Assembly (NCBI GenBank): GCA_017935905.1
Contig: JAGBGO010000009.1
Coordinates: 575 to 64,574, forward strand
Length of the DNA: 64,000 nucleotides
Direction of reading: 5' to 3'
Source: Clostridia bacterium
Lineage (GTDB): Bacteria; Bacillota; Clostridia; UBA1212; UBA1255
Made by a program: the position numbers and the translations under genes. Within the stretch, counting starts at the first letter, position 1, and every line of letters begins with the position of its first letter. The notes below the pieces were generated by a model. The model had not been told where the DNA came from and searched no databases. It saw nothing but the letters and a program-made list of their open reading frames with translations. Positions 28,213 to 62,770 of this stretch are shown here, in pieces.

Positions 28213-28217
28213 ACCAT

Positions 28218-29174
28218 TCACTCCCCTTTTCTGTCCGGTTTGTAGTCTGCATCCAAGGCAGAAAGATCGTAAGGCGTTGCCTGGTATACATAGTAATTCA
28301 ACCAATTGGCGTACAGTAAGTATGCGTGACTGCGCCACTGATGATAGGGTTTCTCTTTTGGATTATCTCCGGGAAAATAATTCTCCGGAACCGCAATTTC
28401 CAGCCCCTTCTTTACGTCTCTTTCATACTCAGTTTTCAGCGTTTCACGATCGTATTCCAAATGTCCGGTAATAAAGATTTGTCTTCTGTCGTGAGACGCA
28501 CAAATGCAAAGACCGGCTTGATCGGAAGCAGCCAATACGTCTAATTCCGGCATCTTCATAACCCGCTTCAAATCATTTCCGGTATAACGGGAATGGGGTA
28601 CGTAGAAAATATCGTCAAAGCCCCGAAGCAAACGGGCTCTCTTATTGAGCACTCGGTGGGGATAGACACCGAACAATTTCTTGCCCAAATCCACTTTGGG
28701 CACACCGTAGTGATAATACATCCCCGCTTGCGCACCCCAACAAATATGGAGTGTGGTCGTTACGTTTTCTTTCGACCACTTCATCAGTCTGCAAAGTTCA
28801 TCCCAATATTTCACTTCTTCAAAAGGCATATTTTCAACAGGCGCCCCTGTGATAATCAAGCCGTCAAACTTTCGATCTTTAATATCATCAAAGGTCCGGT
28901 AAAACGTATTCAAATGACTGATCGGCGTATTCTTCGACGTATACGAAGCCGGGTGCAGAAGCGTCACCTCCACCTGCAAAGGTGTATTACTCAAAAGACG
29001 TAACAGTTGTGTTTCCGTTACAATCTTGGTAGGCATTAAATTCATAATCGCAATCTGCAGTGGACGAATATCCTGAGAAAACGCCATTTCTTCGTTCATC
29101 ACGAATACGTGCTCATTTCTGAGCACTTCCATAGCGGGCAAATGATCGGGAATCTTAATTGGCATGTTCATCAC
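28218..29174 (-). CDS. metA: Homoserine O-acyltransferase, MetA family, probably acetyl-CoA specific
   Basis: QDIRPL, NLMPTK, ITGAPVE (Glu at the specificity position, typical of acetyltransferases), [14 protein letters not shown]. Confidence 0.95.
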
Positions 29175-33181: not shown

Positions 33182-34195
33182 TTATTCAATAACGCCCAGA
33201 CGCTCAATACCGGCCGCCAGCTTCTTCTGTCCCAAGATGTACACGATCAACACGGGGAGCATTACCAACAAACAACCTGCAAACAACGTAGGCTCCATCA
33301 TCGCCTTGGCAAAATCAGAAACTTCACCGGAGGAACCCATCATTTCAGCAAAGTAGTATTGAATATTCTCCAATTTCGGTTGAAGAGTCATCATAGTATT
33401 GGAATACATATACATGGGTGCTTCGCAATTGTCATTCCAGTGCCATACAAAGGAGAAGATAAATACGATGGCGGTAGCGGAACGAACCAACGGAAGCATA
33501 ATTTGCATAAATACACGCAAGGGACCTGCACCGTCAATACGTGCTGCTTCATCCATTGCATTTGGAATACGTTGGAAGAAGTACATATAGATCAATGCAA
33601 ACAAAGCACCACGCAGACCCAATCCAAACAAAGTAGGCAACATAACGGGAAGGAACGTATTAATCGAATTCATCGATGCCCACATTCCGTATGATGCAAT
33701 AATGGTAGTTTGGGGCGGAATTAACAAAGCAAGAAGAACCGTTACGAAGATAAAGATCTTGCCCTTGAAGTTAAAACGTCCTAACGCATAACCGATAATC
33801 GCACAAGATACACATTGAAGAAGTGCACTTCCAAGAGATACGATTAAAGTATTCATAAAGGAAGATACAAACTGTGTACCGCCATCATGGGCAGCTTCGA
33901 AACCAAAATACGAAAGACCCTTAAACGCATCTACGTAGTTCTGCCAGTGAATAGCAGAAGGAATCCACTCGATAGAGGGGTCCATATAGTCCTTGTAAGA
34001 CATCATGGACGTCGTAATAACGTAAATAAACGGAAGGATAAATAAGTAAGCCAACTCGATCAATACGTAGTACAAGAATATTCTTCCAATAACAAACGTA
34101 ATCTTCTTCTTGGCACGATATCCCAAATTACGGTACCGGTCAATAAGTTCATGAATCTTTCCGGATATCTTACTGAAAATCTTCATCGTAACCAC
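33182..34195 (-). CDS. Carbohydrate ABC permease (MalG-like)
   Basis: FFQRIPNAMDEAARIDGAG EAA loop; FVWHWND. Confidence 0.92.
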   Translation of the reverse strand: MVTMKIFSKISGKIHELIDRYRNLGYRAKKKITFVIGRIFLYYVLIELAYLFILPFIYVITTSMMSYKDYMDPSIEWIPSAIHWQNYVDAFKGLSYFGFEAAHDGGTQFVSSFMNTLIVSLGSALLQCVSCAIIGYALGRFNFKGKIFIFVTVLLALLIPPQTTIIASYGMWASMNSINTFLPVMLPTLFGLGLRGALFALIYMYFFQRIPNAMDEAARIDGAGPLRVFMQIMLPLVRSATAIVFIFSFVWHWNDNCEAPMYMYSNTMMTLQPKLENIQYYFAEMMGSSGEVSDFAKAMMEPTLFAGCLLVMLPVLIVYILGQKKLAAGIERLGVIE

Positions 34196-35076
34196 CTCCG
34201 TGTCAACAATACAAAGATCAGAATAACAAGTAAAGTGGCCAACATGTACATCCAGCTAAGTGCAGAAGCCATACCGTACTTGGTACCGGCACTGGTCATT
34301 TCCTCCAAAATACCCATTACAGGATTGGATACGTCTACAAAAGAGTCCACCAACGCATAAATCGCATTCAGAATTACAAAGGGAGAAATATACGGAAGGG
34401 TTACGTGCCAGAAACTTTCCCAAGCAGTTGCACCATCTAATTCCACTACTTCGTACAAAATAATCGGAACACTTTGAAGCGCTGCAAGGAAGATTAAAAT
34501 TTCAACACTACTGGACCACATAATCGTACCGATCTGTGAAATAATCGATACGTCCATAATCTCACTTAAGAAACCCATTCCTCCGGAAGAAAGCATACCG
34601 GAGAATACGCTAATGGATCCAATGCTGTCACTAAACAAGTACGCCATAATAACACCGGCCAAAATTACAGGGATAAAGAAAATAACACGGAAAACCGTTC
34701 TTCCCGGAAAATCCTGTTTTAATAACACTGCGACGAAAAGTGCAAATGCTACAACAATGGGTACTTTATACAAAGACTGTAAAAAGGAATTGAAAACAAC
34801 CTCGCCCACAGCAGGGTCTTTGATAACGTCAATATAGTTATCAAAACCTACAAAAGTACTTTCCCCGCCAAATCCGTACGGGTCCGTTAATTTTGTAATG
34901 AAGAAACTGGTTCTAACGGACAAGAAAAGAGGAATCAACATGAACCAGATAAAACCAACAATCCACGGAATGGAAAAAGTCCAGCCTTCAATTGTTCTCC
35001 GACGTTCAAAAGAACCGAATTTCAAAGTTGTCTTATGGGCTTGTTGCTTTTTGAGTTTAACTACTTGCTTTGCCAA
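34183..35076 (-). CDS. Carbohydrate ABC permease (MalF-like)
   Basis: FLAALQSVPIILYEVVELDGAT EAA loop; FVGFDNY; TTG start after AAGGAGG. Confidence 0.92.
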   Translation of the reverse strand: MAKQVVKLKKQQAHKTTLKFGSFERRRTIEGWTFSIPWIVGFIWFMLIPLFLSVRTSFFITKLTDPYGFGGESTFVGFDNYIDVIKDPAVGEVVFNSFLQSLYKVPIVVAFALFVAVLLKQDFPGRTVFRVIFFIPVILAGVIMAYLFSDSIGSISVFSGMLSSGGMGFLSEIMDVSIISQIGTIMWSSSVEILIFLAALQSVPIILYEVVELDGATAWESFWHVTLPYISPFVILNAIYALVDSFVDVSNPVMGILEEMTSAGTKYGMASALSWMYMLATLLVILIFVLLTRRWLR

Positions 35077-44838: not shown

Positions 44839-46281
44839 TCATGAAGGAAGTTGTAAAACTAAGTCCTTGAACACGTTTCCCCGCTCCTCAAAATTCTTAA
44901 AACGATCGAAACTGGTGCTGGCGGGAGAAAGGAGCACCGTGTCCCCCGGAACGGCCGCTTCATAAGCACATTGTACCGCTTCCGGATAGGTTTCACAATG
45001 GATAACTTTTACAGTTCCTGATGGGTCACAAGCTCGCAGCGCATTTTCAATTTTTTCCGCCGTGGGACCGATTAAAATCAGCGTTTTAACCTTTTCTGCC
45101 AAGGCAGGACCGATGGCATCGTAAGGAATCCCCTTGTCTTTCCCCCCTGCAATCAGTACCACATTCCCCTTAAATACAGACAATGCGTTAATGGTACGAT
45201 TGGGGCTGCTGTCAATGGAACTGTTGTAATACGGAACACCGTGAATCTTTCGAACCAGTTCCAATCGGTGGGCAACGCCGCCAAAGGACGCAGCGACCTG
45301 CACCACGTCTTCTTCCGTAACTTCTTCACCGCAGGCAAGCACAGCCGCCATCAAGTTCTCCACGTTATGGATACCGGGAAGCAGCATGTGTTCACGGGCC
45401 AGAGAGAGGTTCTCCCCTTCTCCTTTTACGAAAATCCATTCATTCATATAATAGGCCATCCGTCCGAAACCTTCCGGGTAAGACATGGTGGGAAGTTTTG
45501 CAGAGAACCAATCCACCTTGCGGCCGGCGTCGATTAAATCCATACCGATTTCCAGGGTTTCCGGACATCCGGCGTTCAGCACCACACGACAGTCGGGGCG
45601 CATGGCGTAAATCCGACATTTGGCATCTATATACTCTTGGTAATCTTTATGTACATCCAAATGGTTCGGCGTAATATTGGTAATCACCGCCACGTGAGGC
45701 GACACAGACAGCGTCATCAGTTGGAAACTGGAAAGTTCCAGCACCACCCGGTCCGTTTCCCGAATGTTGCCGATTTGCGCAATCAGAGGCGTTCCAATGT
45801 TGCCGCCAAGCCAGATTTTGGTATCCGGGCTTCCGGTAAAATGCTTCTCCAATAGCTTACTCACAAGCGTTGTGGTGGTGGTCTTCCCGTCACTGCCGGT
45901 AATGGCATACATCTTACAAGGGCACATGGACATAAACGCTTCCATTTCGCTGGTCAACACGGCGCCTTTAGATACTGCGTCTTGAATTTGAGGCAAATCG
46001 GGACGAATCACCGGAGATTTAAAAATCCGATCAAACTCCCCTTCTGCCAACGTATCCAGATAGCCCGCTCCCAGCACGGCATTACAAATCAAACCTTGCG
46101 CCTGATATTCTTTCGCCGCCGCCCGAAGTGCGTCCGTATCATTCTTGTCAAAAGCCACCACTTCTTTGGTGCCGGCTTCTTTCAAAAAACGCAAAAGAGC
46201 GGCGTTGCTGATGCCAAGACCCAGCACCGCAACGCGCTCCTTCTTCAAATTCTCAATATAAGCATTTAACTTTTCATTCAT
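44839..46281 (-). CDS. murD: UDP-N-acetylmuramoyl-L-alanine--D-glutamate ligase
   Basis: GLGISN, SPVI, TGSDGKTTTT, GGNIG, ELSSFQ, NHLD, HRLE, GGKDKG, SPASTSFD. Confidence 0.96.
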   Translation of the reverse strand: MNEKLNAYIENLKKERVAVLGLGISNAALLRFLKEAGTKEVVAFDKNDTDALRAAAKEYQAQGLICNAVLGAGYLDTLAEGEFDRIFKSPVIRPDLPQIQDAVSKGAVLTSEMEAFMSMCPCKMYAITGSDGKTTTTTLVSKLLEKHFTGSPDTKIWLGGNIGTPLIAQIGNIRETDRVVLELSSFQLMTLSVSPHVAVITNITPNHLDVHKDYQEYIDAKCRIYAMRPDCRVVLNAGCPETLEIGMDLIDAGRKVDWFSAKLPTMSYPEGFGRMAYYMNEWIFVKGEGENLSLAREHMLLPGIHNVENLMAAVLACGEEVTEEDVVQVAASFGGVAHRLELVRKIHGVPYYNSSIDSSPNRTINALSVFKGNVVLIAGGKDKGIPYDAIGPALAEKVKTLILIGPTAEKIENALRACDPSGTVKVIHCETYPEAVQCAYEAAVPGDTVLLSPASTSFDRFKNFEERGNVFKDLVLQLPS

Positions 46282-47714
46282 TGATTCAGCGCCTCATCCA
46301 TTAATTTTTGTAAAATGACAGGATTTGCTTTTCCGCTTGTCTTGGCCATCGCCTGACCCATTAAGGATTTAGCGGCTGCCAGTTTGCCGTTCTTGTAGTC
46401 GTTTACAGACTTCTCGTTGGCAGCCAGTACAGCAGCAACCACATCGCGAAGTACGCTTTCATCATTGATCTGTGCCAAATTCTGCTCACGAACCACGTCC
46501 TCCGGAGCTTTGTCCGTTCCCCAGATTTCTTTCAGCACTTTCTTGGCTGTAGAACTGTTGATGACTTGATCCACCACCAAATTGGAAAGTGCCGCAAAAT
46601 GTTCAGGACTTACGCAAATCCTTTGATCTTCCGGTGTCATCATACGGAAAACGTCCGTAATCAGCATATTGGCTGCAATTTTCGGCGTTTTGGCGGTCTT
46701 GGCACAAGATTCAAAGTAATCGGAAAGTTCTTTGCTTTCCGTTAATTTGAGGGCATCATAAGAAGACAAACCGTAGTTTTGCTCGTACCGTGCCCGTCTT
46801 TCGTCGGGAAGTTCCGGAATGGCCGCTCTCAGGCGAGCAATTTCGTCTTCCGACAGTTCAATGGGCGGAAGGTCCGGATCCGGGAAGTAACGGTAATCGT
46901 CCGCATCTTCTTTCCGACGCATAGTATAGGTTTTGTTCTCCTCCTGGGCAAAGCGCCGTGTTTCCTGTACAATGGCCTCTCCTGCCTCAATAGCATCCAC
47001 CTGTCTTCTATATTCATATTCAATTGCCTTGGCAATAAATGTGAAAGAATTCAGATTTTTCATTTCCGTACGGGTGCCAAAGGGTTCACCCGGTTTATGC
47101 ACAGAAAGGTTTACGTCACAACGAAGACTGCCTTCGTTCATTTTACAGTCGGATACACCGGTGTAAAGGGCGATGGAGCGAAGTTTCTGTACGTAATTCA
47201 CCGCTTCCTGGCTACTACGAATATCCGGTTCGGAAACAACCTCGATCAAAGGCACACCGCATCGGTTACAGTCAATCAGCGTTCCCTTCTCGTCATCGTG
47301 AATCAATTTACCGGCATCTTCTTCAATATGGATACGGGTAATGCCGATTTTCTTTAAACCGGAAGGATCTGTATCACTTTCAATTTCCAACCAGCCGTGC
47401 TCGCAAAGGGGCAGGTCAAATTGGGAAATCTGGTAGGCCTTAGGAAGGTCCGGGTAAAAATAATTCTTTCTGTCCTGCTTGGAGTACCGAGCAATGGTAC
47501 AATTTGTGGCAAGACCTGCCTTCACTGCAAACTCCGCAACCTGACGGTTGAGTACCGGAAGTGTTCCCGGATAGCCCATACATACAGGGCAACACTGGGT
47601 ATTGGGTTCTGCGCCAAAATCCGTGGGACAAGAACAGAAAATTTTCGTTTTGGTTTTGAGCTCAATATGAACTTCAAGACCGATTACCATTTCATAACCT
47701 TTATATAATTCCAT
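46278..47714 (-). CDS. gatB: Asp/Glu-tRNA amidotransferase subunit B
   Basis: IGLEVH, RKNYFYPDLPK, HIEEDAGK, EGSLRCDVN, EMKNLNS, YRYFPDPDL; start at MELYKG. Confidence 0.98.
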   Translation of the reverse strand: MELYKGYEMVIGLEVHIELKTKTKIFCSCPTDFGAEPNTQCCPVCMGYPGTLPVLNRQVAEFAVKAGLATNCTIARYSKQDRKNYFYPDLPKAYQISQFDLPLCEHGWLEIESDTDPSGLKKIGITRIHIEEDAGKLIHDDEKGTLIDCNRCGVPLIEVVSEPDIRSSQEAVNYVQKLRSIALYTGVSDCKMNEGSLRCDVNLSVHKPGEPFGTRTEMKNLNSFTFIAKAIEYEYRRQVDAIEAGEAIVQETRRFAQEENKTYTMRRKEDADDYRYFPDPDLPPIELSEDEIARLRAAIPELPDERRARYEQNYGLSSYDALKLTESKELSDYFESCAKTAKTPKIAANMLITDVFRMMTPEDQRICVSPEHFAALSNLVVDQVINSSTAKKVLKEIWGTDKAPEDVVREQNLAQINDESVLRDVVAAVLAANEKSVNDYKNGKLAAAKSLMGQAMAKTSGKANPVILQKLMDEALNQ

Positions 47715-47727
47715 GGTGCGTTCCTCC

Positions 47728-49176
47728 TTAAATGCCCTTTTCAAAACTATTTGCTACGCGAAGAATGGTCTTCTCATCAAACGCTTTACCAATGAGCTGA
47801 ATACCGATGGGCAAGTTTTCAGCGCCTGTTGCGCAGGGAATGGAAATTGCGGGAAGTCCTGCAATGTTTACCGTTACAGTGTAAATATCGCCTAAATACA
47901 TTTCCAAAGGATCCGTGACTTTTGCACCGGACTTGTAAGCCGTGGTGGGCGAAACAGGTGCCATCACACAGTCGCAATCCTCGAAGATCTTATTAAAGTC
48001 CCGAACCACCAAAGTACGTACCTGCAATGCTTTCTTGTAGTACGCGTCATAGTATCCGGCAGACAGGGCAAACGTACCTAACATAATACGGCGTTTCACC
48101 TCGTCGCCAAAGCCCTCTGAGCGATTCTTCCGGTAAAAACTTTCCATATCTTCACATTGCTCACTGCCGGGTGCGCGGAATCCGTAGCGTACGCCGTCGA
48201 ATCTTGCCAGGTTAGAAGAGGCTTCTGCACTGGAAATAACGTAGTATGCCGGAAGGGCGTCTTTCAGGGTAGGCATAGAAACTTCTTTTACCTTCGCACC
48301 CAAAGATTCGTAGCGAATTGCCGCTTGCAGCGTAGCTTCCCGCACTTCTTTGGAAATACCGCCTTCTCCTGCAATAAATTCTTTAGGAAGGGCAATGGTC
48401 ATGCCTTTTACACCTTTATCCAAATCCACTAAACTGCTGGTCGTATCCGTCTTAACGGAAGTTGCGTCGTGGTGGTCATACCCCCGAATGGCATCAAATA
48501 CGATGGCCGCGTCCTCTACGGTTTTGGTTACAGGGCCAATTTGATCCAAAGAAGATGCAAAGGCAACCAAGCCGTAACGGGAAACACTGCCGTAGGTCGG
48601 TTTCAAACCAACTACGCCGCAGAAGGAAGCCGGCTGACGAATAGAGCCACCCGTATCGGATCCTAAAGAATAAGGTGCCAATTCAGCCGCTACACAAGCT
48701 GCACTGCCGCCGGAACTGCCGCCGGGAACATAGGCTGTGTTTGCGGGATTCTTGGTTTTCTTATAATAAGAGTTCTCCGTGGTAGAACCCATGGCAAATT
48801 CGTCCATATTGGTCTTGCCCAACATAACGACGTGCTGTGCATTTAATTTCTCCATCACCGTTGCGTCAAAAGGCGGCACGTAATTCTCCAACATTTTGGA
48901 AGCACAGGTGGTGCGCACGCCTTTGGTGCTGATGTTATCTTTAATTCCCGCGGGAATACCTGCCAAGGTTGGAAGTGCTTCGCCTTTTGCACGAAGTGCG
49001 TCTACTTCTTTTGCTTTTGCCAGGGCTTCCTCCCCTGTTACGGTGATATATGCACCGATTTCAGGTTCTTTGGCTTCAATATTCTTCAGATATGCCCGTG
49101 TAAGGTCCTCGGAAGAAACCTCTTTCCCGGAGAGCATCCGGCTTAATTCAGAAACGCTGTATTTTGTAAGTTCCAT
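47728..49176 (-). CDS. gatA: Asp/Glu-tRNA amidotransferase subunit A (amidase)
   Basis: GIKDNI, GKTNMDEFAMGS, PGGSSGGS, GSDTGGSIRQP, EVKRRIMLG. Confidence 0.98.
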   Translation of the reverse strand: MELTKYSVSELSRMLSGKEVSSEDLTRAYLKNIEAKEPEIGAYITVTGEEALAKAKEVDALRAKGEALPTLAGIPAGIKDNISTKGVRTTCASKMLENYVPPFDATVMEKLNAQHVVMLGKTNMDEFAMGSTTENSYYKKTKNPANTAYVPGGSSGGSAACVAAELAPYSLGSDTGGSIRQPASFCGVVGLKPTYGSVSRYGLVAFASSLDQIGPVTKTVEDAAIVFDAIRGYDHHDATSVKTDTTSSLVDLDKGVKGMTIALPKEFIAGEGGISKEVREATLQAAIRYESLGAKVKEVSMPTLKDALPAYYVISSAEASSNLARFDGVRYGFRAPGSEQCEDMESFYRKNRSEGFGDEVKRRIMLGTFALSAGYYDAYYKKALQVRTLVVRDFNKIFEDCDCVMAPVSPTTAYKSGAKVTDPLEMYLGDIYTVTVNIAGLPAISIPCATGAENLPIGIQLIGKAFDEKTILRVANSFEKGI

Positions 49177-49191
49177 AGTCCGTTTCCTCCT

Positions 49192-51306
49192 TTATACTTC
49201 GCCCTTCACCGCAACGGTTACGAAACCGTCTCCGGAGGTGGGTGCGTTCTTTAGCATTAAATCGCGGTCGAAAGGTGTGACCACGTTATCTTCCCGCATC
49301 ACGTTTCTTAAATCTGCAATGTGGGCAGTGGCCGCAACGCCCTCTGCATTTAATTCACTTAAACGGTCGGCAAAAGCGATCATACCGTCTAAGTCTTTCT
49401 CAATAGCTTTTTCTTGCTCTTTGGTAAATTCCAGCATGGCAAGTTTTGCAACGCGGGCCGCAGAAACTTTAGCAGGCGTCTTCTTACCCGCCGCACCGGA
49501 AGCGGCTCCCTGCCCTGCCTCTATGGTGCCGGTACAGAGTTTCAGTACTTCCAACTGCTCCTGGTCTACAATATTGGGGGCGTCGGTCATCAAACAAGAT
49601 GCGTCTTTCACCTTGGGGAATGCAATAACGTCACGCAAGGAATCGGCCCCTACCATCAGCATTACCAAACGGTCTAAACCGAAGGCAAAACCACCGTGAG
49701 GCGGTGTGCCGTAGCGGAAGGCGTTAATTAAGAAGCCAAAGCGAGACTGTGCTTCTTCATCGGAAAAACCAAGTGCCTTAAACATAAGTTCCTGTACGTC
49801 GGGGCGGTGAATACGAATACTGCCGCTTCCCAGCTCTACGCCGTTTAATACAAAGTCGTATGCCTGAGCACGTACGCGTCCGGGATCAGACAGCATATAT
49901 GGCAGATCTTCTTCGTAAGGCATAGTGAAAGGATGGTGCTGGGCTACAAAGCGATTCTCTTCTTCGGAATATTCGAACAAGGGGAAATCGGTAATAATAC
50001 AGTAAGCAAATTCATCTTTCTTTCGAAGGCCTAACAAATCTGCAATATCCTGACGAAGGCCGCCTAAGGTGCGGTACACCGTCTTGGGTTTATCGGCACA
50101 GAACAAAATGAAGTCGCCGGGTTTCGCACCCACACGCTCTACAATTGCGTCCATTTCAGACTCTTTGAAATATTTAGACAGAATGGAGTAACGCTCTCCG
50201 TCGTCACGAATGGCAATCCAAGCCATACCGCCGGCACCGTAGCTTTGGGCTTTGGTGGTTAAGTTTTCAATGGTGGTACGGGTAAAAGAGTTGCCGCCTT
50301 TAACGTTAATGGCTCTTACGATGCCACCCTTGTCCGTTACTTTTCTGAACACAGCGAAACTGCAGGTTCTGGCAATATCGGTTAAGTCAATGATTTCCAA
50401 TCCAAAACGGATGTCCGGCTTGTCAGAGCCGAACCGATCCATGGCTTCCTGCCAGGTAAATCTGGGGAAAGGCTTTTGAATCAATTCCTGAATGCTCTTG
50501 TTATCGGGAAGCATTTTACCGGAAACGTCCTTGAAAAGCCCTTCCAAATGACGCAGTACGTCTTCCTGCTCGATGAAAGACATTTCCATATCTACCTGGG
50601 TAAATTCCGGCTGACGGTCAGCACGAAGGTCCTCGTCACGGAAACAGCGGGCTACTTGGTAATATTTGTCTACGCCGCCTACCATTAAAAGCTGCTTAAA
50701 GAGCTGTGGGGACTGAGGAAGCGCATACCAGTTTCCCGGATGCACACGGCTGGGCACCAAATAGTCACGGGCACCCTCCGGCGTACTCTTGGTAAGCATA
50801 GGAGTTTCCACCTGAATAAATCCGGCACCGTCCAAGTAATCTTCCGATACTTTCTGGAGTTTATGGCGAAACTTTAAGTTATCTAACATTTCCGGACGGC
50901 GAATATCTAAATAACGGTATTTTAGACGCAAGTCCTCGCGCACGTTCACGCCCTCGCTTAAATCGTAAGGAAGCGTGGTTGCCTGGGAAAGCAATTCAAT
51001 ATGGGATGCGGCTAATTCCACCGTACCGGTTGCAATCTTGGGGTTGACGGTTTCTGCATCCCGCAAGCGAACGGTTCCTTCCACCAAAATAACCGATTCG
51101 TTTCGAAGGCCTTCTGCAATGGAAAACTCCTGGCTGTCTGCAAAGTCTGCTACGTTAAAGACAACCTGCAAAACGCCTTCTCTGTCACGAAGGTCAATAA
51201 ATACTACGCCACCCATATCTCGCTTGGTCTGTACCCAACCGCAAGCGGTGACGGTCTGTCCGATGTGCGTTTCCCGAACCAAACCACAATAACTTGTTCT
51301 TCTCAT
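49192..51306 (-). CDS. aspS: Aspartyl-tRNA synthetase fused in frame at its C-terminus to GatC
   Basis: AspRS motifs FIDLRD, RLKYRYLD, STPEGARD, ALPQSPQLFK, FRDED, HHPFT, PPHGG, IAFPK; then linker GQGAASGAAGKKTPAK and a GatC-like tail VAKLAMLEF...NVMRED...LMLKNAP. Confidence 0.93.
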   Translation of the reverse strand: MRRTSYCGLVRETHIGQTVTACGWVQTKRDMGGVVFIDLRDREGVLQVVFNVADFADSQEFSIAEGLRNESVILVEGTVRLRDAETVNPKIATGTVELAASHIELLSQATTLPYDLSEGVNVREDLRLKYRYLDIRRPEMLDNLKFRHKLQKVSEDYLDGAGFIQVETPMLTKSTPEGARDYLVPSRVHPGNWYALPQSPQLFKQLLMVGGVDKYYQVARCFRDEDLRADRQPEFTQVDMEMSFIEQEDVLRHLEGLFKDVSGKMLPDNKSIQELIQKPFPRFTWQEAMDRFGSDKPDIRFGLEIIDLTDIARTCSFAVFRKVTDKGGIVRAINVKGGNSFTRTTIENLTTKAQSYGAGGMAWIAIRDDGERYSILSKYFKESEMDAIVERVGAKPGDFILFCADKPKTVYRTLGGLRQDIADLLGLRKKDEFAYCIITDFPLFEYSEEENRFVAQHHPFTMPYEEDLPYMLSDPGRVRAQAYDFVLNGVELGSGSIRIHRPDVQELMFKALGFSDEEAQSRFGFLINAFRYGTPPHGGFAFGLDRLVMLMVGADSLRDVIAFPKVKDASCLMTDAPNIVDQEQLEVLKLCTGTIEAGQGAASGAAGKKTPAKVSAARVAKLAMLEFTKEQEKAIEKDLDGMIAFADRLSELNAEGVAATAHIADLRNVMREDNVVTPFDRDLMLKNAPTSGDGFVTVAVKGEV

Positions 51307-51334
51307 GAGATCCTCTCTTTCTTTCCTTACAAAC

Positions 51335-51575
51335 AAAAAATCTTCCGTCCCGGCCGATTCTTTGCTTTAGAGTCGATCCTTGGGACGAAAGATTGATTTA
51401 CTTCCGCGGTGCCACCCAAATTGACAGCCCCATGCGGGCCATCCTTCTTTGTTGTTCCAATTATGCTGTTTGAACTCCCAGGCGTTCTTCCTGCTTCCTA
51501 CTTTGCATCGCCCTCCCAGCCTGCGGGGCAACTCTCTTTGGTATTTCATGAAACAGTACTCTTCTGTTCAACATT
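51335..51575 (-). promoter_or_regulatory. T-box riboswitch, Asn specifier, upstream of aspS-gatC/gatA/gatB
   Basis: Minus strand: AGTA, AGAGAG and GCTGGGAG stem-I motifs; GAA-G-AAC specifier (AAC at 51486-51484); T-box AATTTGGGTGGCACCGCGG (51422-51404); terminator TCTTTCGTCCC/GGGACGGAAGA plus T6. Confidence 0.93.
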
Positions 51576-51586
51576 CAAACATAGGT

Positions 51587-51615
51587 AGTATAGGAGATTT
51601 CCGGGGAAAAGTCAA
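51587..51615 (-). promoter_or_regulatory. sigma-A promoter for the T-box leader
   Basis: TTGACT (51615-51610), 17 bp, TATACT (51592-51587). Confidence 0.8.
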
Positions 51616-51640
51616 GATTTTTTCTACCGAAAGATGCTCT

Positions 51641-51823
51641 GGGAGGTAGTATGCGCTTTTTTCGGAAAAACCTCACGTTTTTTTGAAGTTGCGGGAGGTT
51701 TTGAGCGTATTATATCTTTTTACCTCCCCATTCCGGTGCCATGCCCGGATATAGCGGGAGGTGAAGTTGTGATTTTCACCATTTTACCTCCCACCCAAAG
51801 TTCCGACACGTGCGGGTAAAATG
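51641..51823. repeat. Array of short inverted-repeat units GGGAGGT-N22/23-ACCTC(C/A)C
   Basis: GGGAGGT at 51641, 51693, 51756; ACCTC(C/A)C at 51670, 51722, 51786; extra IR CATTTTACC (51780) / GGTAAAATG (51815). Confidence 0.65.
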
Positions 51824-51831
51824 CCCTGCCA

Positions 51832-51860
51832 TTGATTTTCTTGCTTTTTTATGGTCTAAT
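51832..51860 (+). promoter_or_regulatory. Probable promoter for the cbrA-like gene
   Basis: TTGATT, 17 bp, TG-G-TCTAAT. Confidence 0.4.
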
Positions 51861-51912
51861 AGAAGTACAAAGAAGTTGGATAACTGGTTGATTTTGTCAG
51901 GAGGCTCAAAAC

Positions 51913-53013
51913 ATGGAGCAAGCAAACCAAAATACGTATGATATTGCCGTTATCGGTGCCGGTCCTGCGGGAGCCGTTTTTGTAAAGGAACTGGCGGAGG
52001 CGCGTCCCGAGCTGAAAATCATTTTAATCGACGGACAGTCTTCGGATTCCGCAAAACCCTGTGGCGGACTTTTAGCACCGGATGCACAAAAGTTGCTGGC
52101 CCGATTTAATTTAGTGCTTCCAAAGAGCGTGCTGGAAGATCCGCAAATCTTTGCGGTGGAAACCATTGATATCCAGCAAAAACTGGTTCGCTATTACCAA
52201 AGACATTATCTGAATATGGACCGCTTCGCATTCGATCAATGGTTGCTGTCTTTAGTGCCTTCCTGCGTTACCATCCAAAACGGGCGCTGCACGGAAATTT
52301 CCCAAGGAGAAAACGGCTATCTAATTGGGATTAAACACAATAACGCGGATACGGAAATCAAAGCGAAAGCGGTAGTAGGTGCCGACGGCGGCGGTTCTGT
52401 CGTACGGCGAACTTTCTTTAAGCCCATGCAGGTTCAGTACGTAGCCATTCAGCAATGGTTTGAAAACAAAGGGCAAAAAGCCCCCTACTATTCCTGTATT
52501 TTTGATGCTAAGACCAGTGACAGTTGTTCCTGGACCATTCACAAAGGCAATCACGTAATATTCGGCGGCGCCTTTGACAAGCACGAATGTCGGCGGGCAT
52601 TCGAGGCACAAAAAACAAGATTAGAAGATTTTCTTGGAAATTCTTTTGGAGAAGCAGTTAAAACGGAGGCTTGCTTGGTTTCAAGTCCCCGTTCTATGGG
52701 GGATTTTTGTACCGGATCCGGAAGTATTTTTCTGATGGGTGAAGCGGCCGGCTTTATCAGTGCCAGCTCCTTTGAAGGGCTCAGCAGTGCAATGTTCAGC
52801 GGTAAAATGCTGGCAGATGCTTTTACCAAAGGCACTTCCCATGGGGAGGTTCAAAAATTATATAAGCGAAGCACACGGTCTTTGAGGCGGAAACTGCGCA
52901 TGAAGTCGATTAAAAGAATGTTCTTGTGTACACCTTTTACCCGTCGTTTGATTATGAAGAGCGGACTGCAAAGCATCCAGCCTTACGAGAAGTCAAAATT
53001 CGGCCAATCTTGA
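51913..53013 (+). CDS. cbrA: FAD-dependent oxidoreductase, CbrA/YidS-like (geranylgeranyl-reductase superfamily)
   Basis: IGAGPAG, KPCGGLLAPDAQ, PQIFAV, YQRHY, GADG, YVAIQQWF, YSCIFD, GEAAGFISASSFEG resemble E. coli CbrA as I recall it. Confidence 0.8.
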   Translation: MEQANQNTYDIAVIGAGPAGAVFVKELAEARPELKIILIDGQSSDSAKPCGGLLAPDAQKLLARFNLVLPKSVLEDPQIFAVETIDIQQKLVRYYQRHYLNMDRFAFDQWLLSLVPSCVTIQNGRCTEISQGENGYLIGIKHNNADTEIKAKAVVGADGGGSVVRRTFFKPMQVQYVAIQQWFENKGQKAPYYSCIFDAKTSDSCSWTIHKGNHVIFGGAFDKHECRRAFEAQKTRLEDFLGNSFGEAVKTEACLVSSPRSMGDFCTGSGSIFLMGEAAGFISASSFEGLSSAMFSGKMLADAFTKGTSHGEVQKLYKRSTRSLRRKLRMKSIKRMFLCTPFTRRLIMKSGLQSIQPYEKSKFGQS

Positions 53014-53038
53014 CATTCTATAATCCAACCAGTATACT
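53010..53038 (+). promoter_or_regulatory. sigma-A promoter for the zinc-ribbon gene
   Basis: TTGACA (53010), 17 bp, TATACT (53033). Confidence 0.7.
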
Positions 53039-53069
53039 GTTTACAAAACAAATTAAAGGAGGTTTGATT

Positions 53070-53549
53070 ATGTCCTATTGTTCAAAATGCGGCAATCAAT
53101 TCAGTGACGGAGATTCTTTCTGTGCATTTTGCGGAAATTCCGTTGTCGAGAAAAAACAAGAATTACAGATTCAACCACAAACTCAAAGTCAACCATCTTT
53201 ATGCGAAGACACGCCCCCTAATATGCCCGGTCGCGGTTCAAGCATCGCCGGAATGATTTTAGGGATCATCGGTTCTCTTTACGGATTCGTTTTTTCCTTG
53301 GTTGCCATTCGCACTGTAATGAGATTAATTCAGTCTGACTGGTATAATTGGTATGAACAAGCAGAAGATTACAGCGGCAATATCTTTATGATTATGTTTT
53401 TTGCAGAGATACCCGTTTTAGCAGTTGTATTCTCCGTTTTGGGAAGAAGCAAAGGCTATCAAACAGGAATCAATAAATCCGGATTGATAACAGGTCTCCT
53501 CGGTTTGTTCTTCTTTATAATCGCATTGGTTATATATATATTTATCTAA
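53070..53549 (+). CDS. Zinc-ribbon (CxxC...CxxC) domain membrane protein, DUF4190-like
   Basis: MSYCSKCG...FCAFCGN, Gln/Pro linker, three hydrophobic segments (SIAGMILGIIG); AAAGGAGG RBS. Confidence 0.7.
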   Translation: MSYCSKCGNQFSDGDSFCAFCGNSVVEKKQELQIQPQTQSQPSLCEDTPPNMPGRGSSIAGMILGIIGSLYGFVFSLVAIRTVMRLIQSDWYNWYEQAEDYSGNIFMIMFFAEIPVLAVVFSVLGRSKGYQTGINKSGLITGLLGLFFFIIALVIYIFI

Positions 53550-53573
53550 TCCGAACAATAAATCATTCATAGC

Positions 53574-53618
53574 AAAAACAACTTTTCAAGCCTTATACGG
53601 TTCGAAAAGTTGTTTTTT
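53574..53618. terminator. Bidirectional terminator between the zinc-ribbon gene and coaE
   Basis: AAAAACAACTTTTC...GAAAAGTTGTTTTT, 14-bp perfect inverted repeat. Confidence 0.8.
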
Positions 53619-53642
53619 GTATGCGTTCTATTTTGATTCCCC

Positions 53643-58574: not shown

Positions 58575-60296
58575 TTACATCTTCTCTACAACCTCCACGC
58601 CGATTAAGTGAAGCGCAGAACGAATACATACGCACGCCGCTTCGGTGAGTTTCAAGCGAGCATCCCGCACACCGTCCTCTGCCTTCATAATGGAACAGTT
58701 GTTATAGAATTTATTAAACTGCTGGGCAAGCTCCGTAACGTAACGGGTTACCACACAAGGCTCGTACTTCTCCGCAGCCTCCCGTACAACGCTTTGGAAA
58801 CGGTTTAAGAGCATCACCAATGCGTACTCCTCATCGGAGGTTGCCAGACTCAAATCCGCATTCGCAAAGTCGATGCCCATCTCCGCCGTCTTACGCAATA
58901 CGCTCTTGCCTCTTGCGTAGGCATACTGTACGTAAGGGCCGGATTCTCCTTCAAAGTCCAGCATATCTTTCCATGTAAAGATAATATCTCTTTCTCTGCC
59001 ATTCTTCAAGAAAGCATACAAAACGGCGCCTACGCCAATCTTCTCGGATACGTAATCCAAGTCTTCCACGTGTTTGCTGGTAGCGCTTTGGAGAATAATC
59101 TCCCGGGTCTTCTCTACAGCTTCCTTCAGCACGTCTTCTAAGAGCACTACGTCGCCGTGACGGGTGGAAAGTACCCGATCCGGGAAACGGACGTAGCCAA
59201 ATCCCACGTGCACGCATCCGTCTGCACAGTCCATACCCATTTTATCCAAGCAAGCGAATACTTGCTTGAAATGAAGGGCTTGGGGCGTCCCCACTACGTA
59301 AATATTCTTAAAGAAATCATAGTGACGCTTTCTATATACGGCTGCCGCAATATCACGGGTTGCATAAATGGTAGAACCGTCGGATTTCAGAATAATGCAA
59401 GGCGGCATATTGTCGTCTTCAAAACGAACGACCTGGGCGCCGTCGCTTTCTTCCAAAATGTTCTTGGCACGCATAATTTCTACAACTTCCGGCATCTTAT
59501 CGGAATAGAAACTCTCTCCTGCATAAGAGTCGAAAGAAATACCCAGCATATCGTACATCCGGTTAAATTCTGTCAAGCTGGCTTCTACGAAGAACTTCCA
59601 AAGACGGGTAACCTCTTCATCTCCATCTTCCAAAGCCTTGAAGTAAGCTCGTGCTTCATCTTCCAATTCCGGCTGTGTCTCTGCTTCCTTGTGGAACTGT
59701 ACGTAGATCTTGAGAAGTTCGTTAATGGGATCTTTCCGTACGGCTTCTTCATTTCCCCATCGCTTGTAAGCGCTGATAAGCTTACCGAACTGGGTTCCCC
59801 AGTCGCCTAAGTGGTTAATCTTCACCGTATCGTAGCCCAGGAAGCTGTAAATACGCTCTAAAGAACTACCTAAAGCGGTAGAAACCAAGTGGCCAATATG
59901 GAAAGGCTTTGCAATGTTGGGAGAGGAAAATTCCACCAACACTTTCTTGCCGGCTCCCTCTTGGGACTTTCCGTAGTCGTCCCCTTGTGTCAGCACGCTG
60001 TCTACAACTGCCTTGGTGACCGCTGCGCGGTTTAAGAAGAAGTTCAAATAGCCACCGGCAACTTGCACCTTCTCAACCAGTTCAGGAAGGGCGCCTGCAT
60101 TTTCGATCTTTTCGCTGATTTCTTTGGCAATCATCGGCGGCGCTTTTCGAAGCGTCTTTGCCAGTTGGAAGCACGGGAACGCCAGATCGCCCATTTTACG
60201 ATCCGGGGGCGTTTCTAAGAACTTCACGTAGTTGCTTCCCTCTGACTCCCCAAGGACTGTGGCAATCAGGGAAGCGACGGTCATTTTTTCATTCAT
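58575..60296 (-). CDS. argS: Arginyl-tRNA synthetase
   Basis: GDLAFPCF, EFSSPNIAKPFHIGH, HLGDWGTQFG, YATRD, GESGPYVQY. Confidence 0.97.
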   Translation of the reverse strand: MNEKMTVASLIATVLGESEGSNYVKFLETPPDRKMGDLAFPCFQLAKTLRKAPPMIAKEISEKIENAGALPELVEKVQVAGGYLNFFLNRAAVTKAVVDSVLTQGDDYGKSQEGAGKKVLVEFSSPNIAKPFHIGHLVSTALGSSLERIYSFLGYDTVKINHLGDWGTQFGKLISAYKRWGNEEAVRKDPINELLKIYVQFHKEAETQPELEDEARAYFKALEDGDEEVTRLWKFFVEASLTEFNRMYDMLGISFDSYAGESFYSDKMPEVVEIMRAKNILEESDGAQVVRFEDDNMPPCIILKSDGSTIYATRDIAAAVYRKRHYDFFKNIYVVGTPQALHFKQVFACLDKMGMDCADGCVHVGFGYVRFPDRVLSTRHGDVVLLEDVLKEAVEKTREIILQSATSKHVEDLDYVSEKIGVGAVLYAFLKNGRERDIIFTWKDMLDFEGESGPYVQYAYARGKSVLRKTAEMGIDFANADLSLATSDEEYALVMLLNRFQSVVREAAEKYEPCVVTRYVTELAQQFNKFYNNCSIMKAEDGVRDARLKLTEAACVCIRSALHLIGVEVVEKM

Positions 60297-60310
60297 GGAG
60301 GATCCTCCTC

Positions 60311-62746
60311 TTAACTTACAACAATGTTCACAATCTTGCCGGGTACAACGATTACTTTGCGCACCGTCTTACCATCAATATAGCCTTGAATCTTCTCGTC
60401 TGCCAAAGCATACGCTTCGATTTGGGCTTTATCATAAGACGTAGGAACCGTGATACGGCCTTTCAGTTTGCCGCAAATCTGTACAGCCAGTTCAATTTCG
60501 TCCTTCACCATAGCGGCTTCATCATATTCCGGCCAAGTCTCCTGATAAAGCATCTTGTCAGATAACTTGAGGGCTTCCCACATTTCTTCCGTAATGTGAG
60601 GAGCAACCGGGTTTAAGAGCAGCAACAATGCGCGAAGGTCGCCTCTTGAGAGAGAACCGTTTGCGTAAATATCGTTTACCAATGCCATCATAGCGGCAAT
60701 ACCCGTGTTAAACTTCATGCGCTCGTAGTCTTCGGAAACTTTCTTAATGGTCTGGTGTACGTTTGCCTTAAGTGCCTGAGAAATTTCTTCCTCATCTGTT
60801 ACGATTTCCTGGAGTTTCCATACACGGTCCAAGAAACGGTAACAACCGCGAGCGCCCTTGGTAGACCACGGAATCGCCTGGTCGAAAGCACCCATAAACA
60901 TTTCGTACAAACGGAATGCATCAGCACCCAACTCATTTACAATATCATCCGGATTGATCACGTTGCCGCGGGACTTGGACATCTTCTCCCCGTTCTCACC
61001 TAATATCATACCGTGAGAAGTACGCTTTACGTAAGGCTCCGGACAAGATACGGCACCAATATCATATAAGAATTTATGCCAGAATCTGGAATAAAGCAAG
61101 TGCAGCGTGGTATGCTCCATACCGCCGTTGTACCAGTCCACAGGAAGCCAGTAATCCATAGCCTCTTTGGAAATCATTTCGTCGTTATTGTGGGGATCAC
61201 AGTAACGAATGAAGTACCAGGAAGAACCTGCCCACTGAGGCATGGTATCCGTCTCACGCTTTGCAGGCGCACCGCACTTGGGACAAGTGGTATTGACCCA
61301 CTCCGGCACGTTGACCAAGGGAGACTCACCGCTGTCGGTTTGCACGTAGTTATCAATTTCAGGCAGCGTTAAAGGAAGCTCATGCTCCGGTACCGGCACC
61401 CATCCGCAGTGTTCACAGTATACCAAGGGAATCGGCTCGCCCCAATAACGTTGACGGCTGAATACCCAGTCACGAAGTTTAAAGTTGACTTTCCGCTCGC
61501 CAAGGCCTTTCTCGTTCAGCCAGTCAATAATGGTCTTCTTGGCTTCTTCAACGCTAAGACCGTTTAAGAAATCGGAGTTCACCATGGTTCCGGTTTGAAT
61601 ATCGGTAAAAGCGGCCTCTTGTACATTGCCACCGGCAACGACTTCAATAATGGGCAAACCAAACTTCTTAGCAAAGGCCCAGTCTCTGTCGTCGTGCGCC
61701 GGAACCGCCATAATGGCACCGGTTCCGTAAGAGTTTAATACGTAGTCAGACGTCCAAACAGGAATTTCTCTGCCGTTTACAGGGTTAATGGCAGTAATGC
61801 CTTCTAACGGAACACCGGTCTTGTCTTTCGCAAGCTCCGTACGCTCAAAGTCAGACTTTTTGGCAGCCTCTGCCTTGTATGCAAGTACGGCGTCGTAGTT
61901 GGTAATATGGGCCTTCATACGCTCAATTGCCGGATGCTCGGGAGATACAACCATGTACGTCGCACCGAACAAGGTATCCGGGCGAGTGGTATAAACGGTG
62001 AGCTTCTCACCGGTCTGGGGCACGGTAAAATGCACCTCAGCACCCTCACTTCTGCCAATCCAGTTCTTCTGCTGGGTCTTTACTTTCTCAATAAAAGCAA
62101 CGTCATCTAAGCCGTCCAACAACTTCTGTGCGTAGTCGGTAATGCGCAGCATCCACTGGGATTTCACTTTTCGTACAACTTCCCCACCGCAACGTTCGCA
62201 CACGCCGTTTACCACTTCTTCGTTGGCAAGACCTACTTTACAAGAGGTACACCAGTTAATGGGCATCTCCGTCTTGTAGGCAAGGCCTTTTTCAAATAAC
62301 TTTAAGAAAATCCACTGGGTCCACTTATAATAATTCGGATCGGTGGTATTGATTTCTTTGGACCAGTCGAAACCGAAGCCCAACATCTTCAATTGCGCCT
62401 TAAAACGAGCCACGTTGTTTGCCGTAACGGTTGCGGGATGCATCTTATTCTTAATGGCAAAGTTCTCCGTAGGCAGACCGAATGCGTCCCAACCAATGGG
62501 GAACAAAACGTTGTAGCCTTCCATACGGCGTTTACGGCCGATAATATCCATAGCAGTATTGGACCTGGGATGACCTACGTGAAGTCCGTTTCCGGAAGGA
62601 TACGGAAATTCAATCAAACCGTAGAATTTCTTCTTGGTATAGTCCGTAGAGGTTTCGAATGCTTTCTTCTCCTCCCAAATATCCTGCCACTTTTTCTCAA
62701 TGGCTGCGTGATCATACTCTTTAATCTTCTTCATTTGCTCACTCAT
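60311..62746 (-). CDS. leuS: Leucyl-tRNA synthetase
   Basis: [37 protein letters not shown]; start at MSEQ. Confidence 0.98.
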
Positions 62747-62770
62747 ACTGATCCACAATCCTTTCTATCC

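Follow-up and report, generated by a model that had tools for sequence, protein, structure and literature searches.

Does the 704-residue open reading frame (ORF) at positions 49192-51306 of a 64,000-nucleotide stretch of Clostridia DNA (contig JAGBGO010000009.1; this whole stretch is referred to as the window) encode a natural fusion of aspartyl-tRNA synthetase (AspRS) with GatC, a subunit of the amidotransferase GatCAB, and if so, what might the fusion do in making Asn-tRNA-Asn? An initial annotation of this DNA had proposed such a fusion and had called it a covalently tethered Asn-transamidosome. We found that the ORF is a genuine inherited fusion of aspS and gatC. It is the first cistron of a unit consisting of a promoter, a T-box leader of the Asn type, aspS::gatC, gatA and gatB. 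Taking the locus as a whole, we consider it likely that this inherited fusion heads a unit induced by tRNA-Asn, and that the product is a pre-assembled (AspRS~GatC)2·GatA2·GatB2 transamidosome.

A single gene encodes AspRS and GatC

The ORF lies on the minus strand and runs as one uninterrupted frame of 704 codons from the ATG at 51306 to the TAA at 49192-49194. A mechanical ORF list starts the same ORF further upstream, at TTG 51336. Because this TTG sits within the U-tract of the T-box terminator described below, and because a Shine-Dalgarno sequence (GAGAGGA) stands 5' of ATG 51306, the ATG is the likely start. The parts of the gene and the two genes that follow it are as follows.

49543..51306, minus strand: AspRS part of the fused coding sequence, residues 1-588 (Pfam and NCBIfam domains)
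49480..49542, minus strand: interdomain linker, residues 589-609, KLCTGTIEAGQGAASGAAGKK (no in-frame start; predicted disordered)
49192..49479, minus strand: GatC module, residues 610-704, with the stop codon (PF02686 and TIGR00135 above cutoffs)
47728..49176, minus strand: gatA, 482 aa (Pfam Amidase, E 1.6e-153)
46278..47714, minus strand: gatB, 478 aa from ATG 47714 (GatB_N and GatB_Yqey)

The domain content of the protein agrees with the claim that AspRS runs into GatC without a stop. Pfam identified tRNA_anti-codon (residues 19-106), tRNA-synt_2 (124-566), GAD (320-414) and GatC (627-698). The AspRS part has the OB anticodon-binding domain (PF01336), the class II core (PF00152) and the GAD insertion (PF02938), and passes the bacterial AspRS profiles TIGR00459 aspS_bact (754 bits, cutoff 374) and NF001750 (811 bits, cutoff 443). 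Concerning the tail, a profile scan had been recommended, and both GatC profiles scored above their cutoffs: TIGR00135 gave 68.6 bits within the fused protein and 72.6 bits with the tail alone (cutoff 47.1), and PF02686 gave 58-61.5 bits (E 1e-15, cutoff 23). The AspRS had been read as ending at the motif EQLEVLKL near 49537, and L590 is indeed encoded by 49537-49539. The Thermus thermophilus AspRS 1efw was matched with 596 bits; matches in PDB were confined to residues 1-590, and no chain spanning both the AspRS and GatC parts was present in a PDB sequence search. The position of the fused gene directly upstream of gatA and gatB was also confirmed, with gatA beginning 15 nt past the stop codon of the fusion, behind AGGAGG, and gatB coming next.

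The fusion is conserved among Clostridia

The exact cluster of the protein at 90% identity has 14 members. They come from independent assemblies in NCBI, ENA and Logan, almost all are 704 residues long, and their contigs reach 486 kb. The same architecture was then sought in relatives, as the initial annotation had advised. AspRS and GatC domains were found together in 120 of the 120 best homologue clusters, with lengths of 685-738 aa and identities of 63-99%. The taxa with this architecture are Clostridia/Oscillospiraceae/Tissierellaceae, and the named members of the 120 clusters are metagenome-assembled genomes (MAGs) of Oscillospiraceae, Clostridiales, Clostridia or Firmicutes. The public name of the fused homologues is simply 'aspartate--tRNA ligase'. 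Ten fused loci were read as DNA, and an internal stop was absent from all of them. In every fused locus gatA directly follows the fused gene, and the position of gatB is likewise conserved; the order aspS::gatC-gatA-gatB is kept in L002-L004, L081-L087 and L092 despite differing flanking genes.

A set of unfused AspRS was obtained by scanning contigs with back-translated universal AspRS motifs, and the matches listed were mostly unfused aspS. This set serves as an outgroup and is not a measure of the prevalence of the fusion. Among the matches listed, gatCAB was present within 6 kb of none of the 76 unfused aspS loci (GTDB genomes). A search of representative sequences with the GatC tail returned almost only short proteins and no full-length fused protein among the best 150, presumably because other sequences stand for the fused proteins in the 50% clustering. 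It did bring up the free GatC (P0122) of the sister lineage described below.

The two parts are joined by a spacer conserved in length

In 121 proteins, the spacer between the conserved anchors L588 and A620 measures 26-33 residues, with a median of 29. It is rich in Ala, Lys, Gly and Glu and contains virtually no aromatic residues or Cys. Mean pairwise identity among the same proteins is 34% in the spacer, 74% in AspRS and 57% in GatC. An AlphaFold2 monomer model based on a 46-sequence alignment had a mean predicted local distance difference test (pLDDT) score of 73 and a predicted template modelling (pTM) score of 0.66, and residues 588-609 had pLDDT values below 50, that is, they are predicted to be disordered. 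Judged from the alignment, a linker conserved in length and not in sequence is the signature of a tether. The proposal that the linker is an evolved spacer, and not intergenic DNA that came to be read through, thus held up. In the tail, only the N-terminal GatC helices (616-622 and 629-650) were modelled, as would be expected for a subunit that folds around GatA and GatB.

An Asn T-box leader precedes the fused gene

The region upstream of the fused gene was examined for promoters and structured RNAs. Across 49100-51950, a scan of both strands gave a single promoter-like site, a sigma-70-type promoter, and a T-box leader with its terminator lies between this site and the gene. The elements, together with two T-boxes used as controls, are listed below.

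51587..51615, minus strand: sigma-70-type promoter, TTGACT-17 nt-TATACT (10/12 match)
51378..51580, minus strand: T-box leader RNA, specifier side GAAG-AAC-G, bulge UGGC (RF00230)
51335..51394, minus strand: T-box terminator hairpin, CUUUCGUCCC...GGGACGGAAG, with a U6 tract (RNA fold)
L077 4321-4520 and L054 3262-3480: control T-boxes of unfused hisS-aspS operons, specifier GAC

The promoter is homologous to that preceding the free gatC of a sister lineage (L088, see below), with a 14-nt exact match at window 51609-51622, and is also present in the fused locus L092. The T-box was found by a permissive-threshold Rfam scan of the 570-bp upstream region, in which RF00230 was matched over the full model (1-219) with 74.1 bits (E 3.8e-16). 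The structural features of a T-box are present in the window: a specifier followed by a purine, a UGGN bulge (UGGC) and an alternative terminator. The terminator folds with -30.3 kcal/mol (z = -2.5), and its 5' arm overlaps the 3' strand of the T-box antiterminator. In the nine other fused loci, a T-box stands 50-110 nt before the gene and scores 90-128 bits, five of them above the Rfam gathering score.

In T-boxes, the last base of the specifier loop, after the specifier codon, is a purine. AAC and then a purine occupy this position in the T-boxes of all ten fused loci, the loop reading GAAGAAC in eight and GAAAAAC in two. By this rule, the specifier of the window T-box reads as AAC, a codon for Asn. 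As a control, the same rule was applied to unfused Oscillospiraceae aspS (L077 and L054), which is the second gene of T-box-hisS-aspS operons, and the specifier obtained was GAC (Asp). The predicted Asn T-box makes the link of the operon to asparagine stronger than was known to the initial annotation.

The antiterminator bulge (window ~51408-51411) is UGGC in the window, L092 and L002, and UGGU in the other seven fused loci (L003, L004, L081, L082 and L085-L087). This split would imply either different discriminator bases in tRNA-Asn or G-U pairing. No tRNA gene was detected in the window with ARAGORN. Upstream of the promoter, at 51640-51860, several copies of the motif CCTCCC / GGGAGG(T)AAAA occur in both orientations and are probably due to chance or a small repeat element. 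Two weak Rfam matches in this intergenic region, to twister-P1 at 51716-51766 on the plus strand (22.9 bits; gathering score 67) and to a glutamine riboswitch (16.7 bits), were taken to be chance matches.

A sister lineage carries a free gatC

A free 95-aa GatC (P0122) emerged when the GatC tail was used as query in an exhaustive search; the two are 68% identical in phmmer and 67% identical over a 91-residue domain alignment. The contigs of P0122 (L088-L091, ENA metagenome contigs) have the order polA-coaE-(236 bp)-gatC-gatA-gatB-murD-SBP, which is syntenic with the window.

L088 5755-6288: free-gatC sister locus; window counterpart 49490-53641

L088 and the window are 81% identical in nucleotides on both sides of this region, in which 236 bp of L088 stand for 4,152 bp of the window (49490-53641). 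The promoter and the leader's first bases are kept in L088, and AAGGAG and gatC come next; the T-box and aspS are absent from the locus in L088-L091. In L092, whose fused protein is 85% identical to that of the window, coaE is followed by 382 bp containing the promoter and T-box, and then by aspS::gatC. The coaE identities (81/69/67%) and three-taxon sites (117/46/35) indicated that the window and L088 are sisters and that L092 lies outside. Because the outgroup L092 is fused, the fusion is ancestral by parsimony, and L088 would have lost the T-box and aspS via a deletion of about 2.1 kb. An insertion in the window as the source of the T-box and aspS was rejected, taking into account the fused outgroup and the promoter and leader bases retained in L088. 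As the sister lineage deleted the fused aspS, the fused AspRS is dispensable, and this implies that another AspRS exists, in line with an accessory paralogue that serves Asn. The occurrence of separate genes with identical flanks in relatives had been named as evidence that would speak against the fusion. A free gatC with the same flanks does exist in L088, but a separate aspS does not, and the difference is the deletion of about 2.1 kb.

We compared the rates of change since the split. The gatC of L088 has accumulated 41 lineage-specific substitutions and that of the window 15 (relative-rate p = 0.0005), with 46 and 35, respectively, in coaE; the contrast between gatC and coaE gave p = 0.07. 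Non-synonymous change in the freed gatC is about fivefold that in its tethered counterpart. Both copies, including the GatC module of the fused gene, remain under purifying selection (dN/dS 0.19). The faster change of the freed GatC is a hint that GatC evolves under constraints shaped by the tether.

Between coaE and the operon promoter, the window lineage alone has two plus-strand ORFs (51913-53549); L092 and L088 lack them. One encodes an FAD-binding protein resembling geranylgeranyl reductases (NF008519, 409 bits). The other encodes 207 residues with a Cys-rich, zinc-ribbon-like N-terminus and a hydrophobic C-terminus, with no family match. From this distribution, the pair looks like an insertion of about 2 kb.

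The fused synthetases form a clade with its own signature

A neighbour-joining tree was built from 87 AspRS cores, 11 fused and 76 unfused, the latter taken from among the matches listed in the contig scan. The 11 fused cores, including L003 from the Tissierellaceae, form one clade with no unfused member, indicating that the fused AspRS are of single-clade origin. The AspRS part of the window is 57-99% identical to fused AspRS and, among the matches listed, 50-56% identical to unfused AspRS.

We also examined residues in the anticodon-binding domain. Met31 (codon 51214-51216) is found in all 11 fused loci and in 46 of the 46 sequences of alignment A3. At this position the 76 unfused AspRS among the matches listed have Leu (43), Lys (23) or His (10), and never Met. 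The aligned residue is His in the non-discriminating (ND) AspRS from Pseudomonas aeruginosa and Leu in the discriminating (D) AspRS from Escherichia coli and T. thermophilus. At a second marker position, the window has E85, P. aeruginosa Gly and E. coli Lys. Bernard et al. are said to have described in 2006 the marker residues of the anticodon domain, His31/Gly83 in P. aeruginosa numbering. We take these two residues of P. aeruginosa to be ND markers, and position 31 to be implicated in the recognition of tRNA-Asn. As sequence, M31/E85 neither proves nor excludes non-discrimination, but the clade has an anticodon-domain signature of its own. The coupling to Asn is genomic, in that the AspRS shares its operon with gatA and gatB and with a T-box whose specifier is AAC in all ten fused loci.

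Could the fused enzyme be an AspRS specialised for tRNA-Asn, marked by Met31, induced only by uncharged tRNA-Asn and releasing its product only via GatCAB? We regard this as possible but improbable. Helicobacter pylori GluRS2 serves only tRNA-Gln, and such an AspRS would be its aspartate counterpart. If this were the case, the fusion would be a modular, self-contained 'two-step AsnRS' that can be gained or lost as a cassette; the recent fission in the sister lineage suggests gain and loss of this kind.

Proposed function of the fusion and alternative explanations

We propose the following mechanism. In the leader, uncharged tRNA-Asn would pair with both the AAC specifier and the UGGC bulge and stabilise the antiterminator, which would allow RNA polymerase to read into the operon. 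The product would be a dimer of class II AspRS chains, each bearing a GatC module after a flexible tether of about 21 residues. Each GatC would nucleate one GatA-GatB pair. The resulting pre-assembled (AspRS~GatC)2-GatA2-GatB2 particle would have the same AspRS:GatCAB ratio as the non-covalent P. aeruginosa Asn-transamidosome (2:2:2 with tRNA-Asn). The AspRS would load Asp onto tRNA-Asn, the acceptor end would move to GatB, and Asp would be amidated to Asn. The tether would keep both enzymes co-regulated, equimolar and permanently close, so that Asp-tRNA-Asn would have a greater chance of being captured before reaching EF-Tu. The fused AspRS probably serves the Asn pathway as a dedicated accessory paralogue and is not the housekeeping AspRS. 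In this proposal we infer the formation of the complex, the charging of tRNA-Asn, the benefit of channelling and the presence of a second aspS.

Several observations weigh against the proposal. The sister lineage functions with a free GatC; as GatC works unfused there, the tether is not essential. M31/E85 is neither ND-like nor D-like, and sequence does not demonstrate non-discrimination. The T-box of the window scores below the Rfam gathering score of 93, which is why default annotation misses it, and a default Rfam scan of the window at the gathering threshold gave no match. A check for asnS, glnS and a free gatC had also been called for: the 64-kb window holds no other aspS or gatC, and no asnS, glnS or asnA/B. 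If GlnRS is absent, all GatCAB would be tied to AspRS and to control by tRNA-Asn, which looks awkward for the synthesis of Gln-tRNA-Gln.

One alternative is that the fused AspRS is the housekeeping AspRS of the cell. In its favour, no second aspS is present within the 64-kb window, the enzyme scores as a full bacterial AspRS equivalog, and many bacteria that lack AsnRS rely on a single ND-AspRS. The leader, however, appears to sense Asn and not Asp, and unfused aspS in the same family stands under an Asp T-box with hisS. The sister lineage has deleted the fused aspS and so must have another, and the fused cores form a clade separate from the hisS-linked ones. We therefore judge the housekeeping role to be unlikely.

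Slightly less probable still is a neutral 'Rosetta-stone' fusion, in which adjacent genes of an operon became one when a stop codon was lost, and the tether, although tolerated, brings no kinetic or fidelity benefit. In Clostridium acetobutylicum, a T-box reportedly controls an aspS-gatCAB operon in which aspS and gatC are separate (Saad et al. 2012), so the same operon would exist without the fusion. The reversion of the sister lineage to a free GatC, and the fact that transamidosomes of the bacterial type are normally dynamic complexes, point in the same direction. On the other hand, the fusion has been kept, at identities as low as 57%, across a clade that takes in Oscillospiraceae and Tissierellaceae at the least, and the length of the linker is held within a narrow range. 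The excess of substitutions in the freed GatC relative to the tethered one (p = 0.0005) also argues against neutrality, although the contrast with coaE reached only p = 0.07.

The fusion might also exist only at the gene level, with internal initiation at TTG585 or M624, or proteolysis of the linker, giving an untethered GatCAB. As the initial annotation had stated, the linker itself lacks start codons: there is no in-frame ATG, GTG or TTG between L585 (TTG 49552-49554) and M624 (ATG 49435-49437). At the upstream end, the window has AGGAG 3 nt before the in-frame TTG585, but the codon for residue 585 is not ATG, GTG or TTG in any of the other nine fused loci. Internal initiation at TTG585 as a feature of the family was dropped, since the TTG585/AGGAG pair is not conserved. 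M624 lies inside GatC helix 1, and a start there would have no Shine-Dalgarno sequence and would lose most of this helix. More generally, no conserved in-frame start with a Shine-Dalgarno sequence precedes the GatC module in the ten fused loci (L003, L004 and L085 have no such start between the AspRS C-terminus and GatC helix 1), and no promoter-like site stands ahead of the module in the scan of both strands of 49100-51950. The window codons GCG GGT AAG AAG ACG (A606-T610) align in frame with ATG GGT AAT AAG GTG of the free gatC in L088, so that the ATG and GTG starts of the free gene are GCG and ACG in the window. In this respect the module differs from a free-standing GatC subunit of about 95 residues with its own start codon. 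As for proteolysis, the linker is predicted to be disordered and is Lys-rich near its end, which would make it accessible to proteases, and GatC of the sister lineage can function free. A cleavage site should, however, conserve sequence, and the linker conserves length instead. Taking these points together, an untethered product is quite unlikely.

Finally, a sequencing or assembly artefact, in which a lost stop codon or an indel falsely joined separate aspS and gatC genes, is refuted for practical purposes: the window does resemble MAG sequence, and its close relative L088 carries a free gatC with the same downstream flank, but the 14 members of the exact cluster were each assembled independently, all 120 best homologue clusters are fused, all ten fused loci are free of internal stops, and the L088 locus lacks aspS altogether and differs by a 2.1-kb deletion and not by a stop codon.

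Other genes in the window

Beyond polA and a gene for a UvrD-type helicase, argS (573 aa) and leuS (815 aa) adjoin each other at 58575-62758 on the minus strand, about 7 kb upstream of the operon. Apart from this pair and the fused gene, the window has no aminoacyl-tRNA synthetase genes. Two ORFs on the minus strand had no Pfam match: one of 555 aa at 26671-28338 (E <= 1e-3) and one of 297 aa at 34183-35076 (E <= 1e-8). They sit among genes resembling those of sugar ABC transporters and a gene for a DUF5696 protein.

Implications

Throughout this large clade of Clostridia, the gatC belonging to the gatCAB locus sits inside a protein that carries only the label 'aspartate--tRNA ligase' in public sources, and the DNA examined holds no other gatC. 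For many MAGs from gut and rumen, automated reconstruction will as a consequence report an incomplete GatCAB and a lack of the indirect Asn and Gln pathways. Concerning mechanism, Asn-transamidosomes of the bacterial type are dynamic and hard to trap, and a natural tether of constrained length is a ready-made construct for cryo-electron microscopy. It also allows a measurement of the share of proximity in keeping Asp-tRNA-Asn out of translation. In terms of evolution, the window and the sister lineage provide a natural pair of fused and unfused loci, with 81% nucleotide identity and the same promoter; the consequences of fission seen so far are the loss of T-box control, the loss of the AspRS paralogue and a faster evolution of GatC. 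As to regulation, the conserved AAC specifier, often within GAAGAAC, extends the 'NT-box' arrangement of C. acetobutylicum to a much wider group.

Comparison with known systems

The T-box of C. acetobutylicum, the 'NT-box', responds to both tRNA-Asn and tRNA-Glu and has overlapping GAA and AAC in an 8-nt specifier loop (PMC4574755, PMC11404447). The same overlap is present in eight of the ten fused loci (GAAG-AAC-R), whereas the other two read GAAAAAC.

Among the characterised complexes, the Asn-transamidosomes of P. aeruginosa (PDB 4WJ3) and H. pylori have the same components as those expected here, a GAD-containing AspRS, GatCAB and tRNA-Asn. The AspRS part matched chain 4wj3_M with 570 bits. 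The 2:2:2 stoichiometry of the P. aeruginosa complex (bioRxiv 10.1101/733030) is what a fused AspRS dimer with one GatC per chain would hard-wire. The marker residues differ, His/Gly in P. aeruginosa and M31/E85 in the window. In H. pylori the complex is dynamic, the ND-AspRS leaving after charging and GatCAB being shared with the Gln pathway (PMC3367201). The known complexes of the bacterial type are non-covalent and scaffolded by tRNA; here, the tethered AspRS would be unable to leave. The T. thermophilus Asn-transamidosome (PDB 3KFU), on the other hand, stays assembled through the catalytic cycle (PMC3367201), a stability that the tether would enforce. In this case, however, the enzyme is the archaeal-type AspRS2 without GAD, the stability comes from protein-tRNA contacts and not from a covalent link, and the fused protein matched 1n9w/3kfu with only 126 bits.

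Of published fusions, the mycobacterial GatC-GatA selected in the laboratory comes closest. In Mycobacterium smegmatis, GatC-GatA fusion mutants were obtained in a forward-genetic screen, and the fusion raises mistranslation (PMC7541841). As in the window, GatC is joined to a partner of the pathway through a lost stop codon, and the cell survives. In the mutants the C-terminus of GatC is fused to GatA. The fusion of the window instead tethers the N-terminus of GatC, leaves its C-terminus and the gatC-gatA junction normal, and is conserved in nature. The GlnRS of Deinococcus radiodurans bears a C-terminal YqeY/GatB-like domain (PMC1865053) and is another natural synthetase with a C-terminal module derived from the amidotransferase system. 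The synthetase is a different one, and the module is a paralogue of the tRNA-binding tail of GatB and not a subunit that recruits the amidotransferase.

The same end-to-end architecture is modelled by NF009460 (PRK12820), 'bifunctional aspartyl-tRNA synthetase/aspartyl/glutamyl-tRNA amidotransferase subunit C'. Residues 4-695 of the window protein align to positions 23-715 of its 723. The cutoff of 1379 bits was not reached by the window protein (603.8 bits) or by L003, L002, P0104 and P0033 (637-664 bits), and the window fusion belongs to a different, more populous clade with the same architecture. No paper on the NF009460 architecture, no description of a natural AspRS-GatC fusion and no characterised example was found in the literature searched. 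The initial annotation, which knew of none either, was correct on this point but overstated the novelty, with NF009460 and more than 100 public clusters having the architecture. The novelty is modest, in that the architecture is already catalogued in NCBIfam for another clade and the pathway and regulatory arrangement are known. What is new here is the Asn T-box, the clade marked by Met31, the conservation of linker length, and the loss of the T-box and aspS in a sister lineage.

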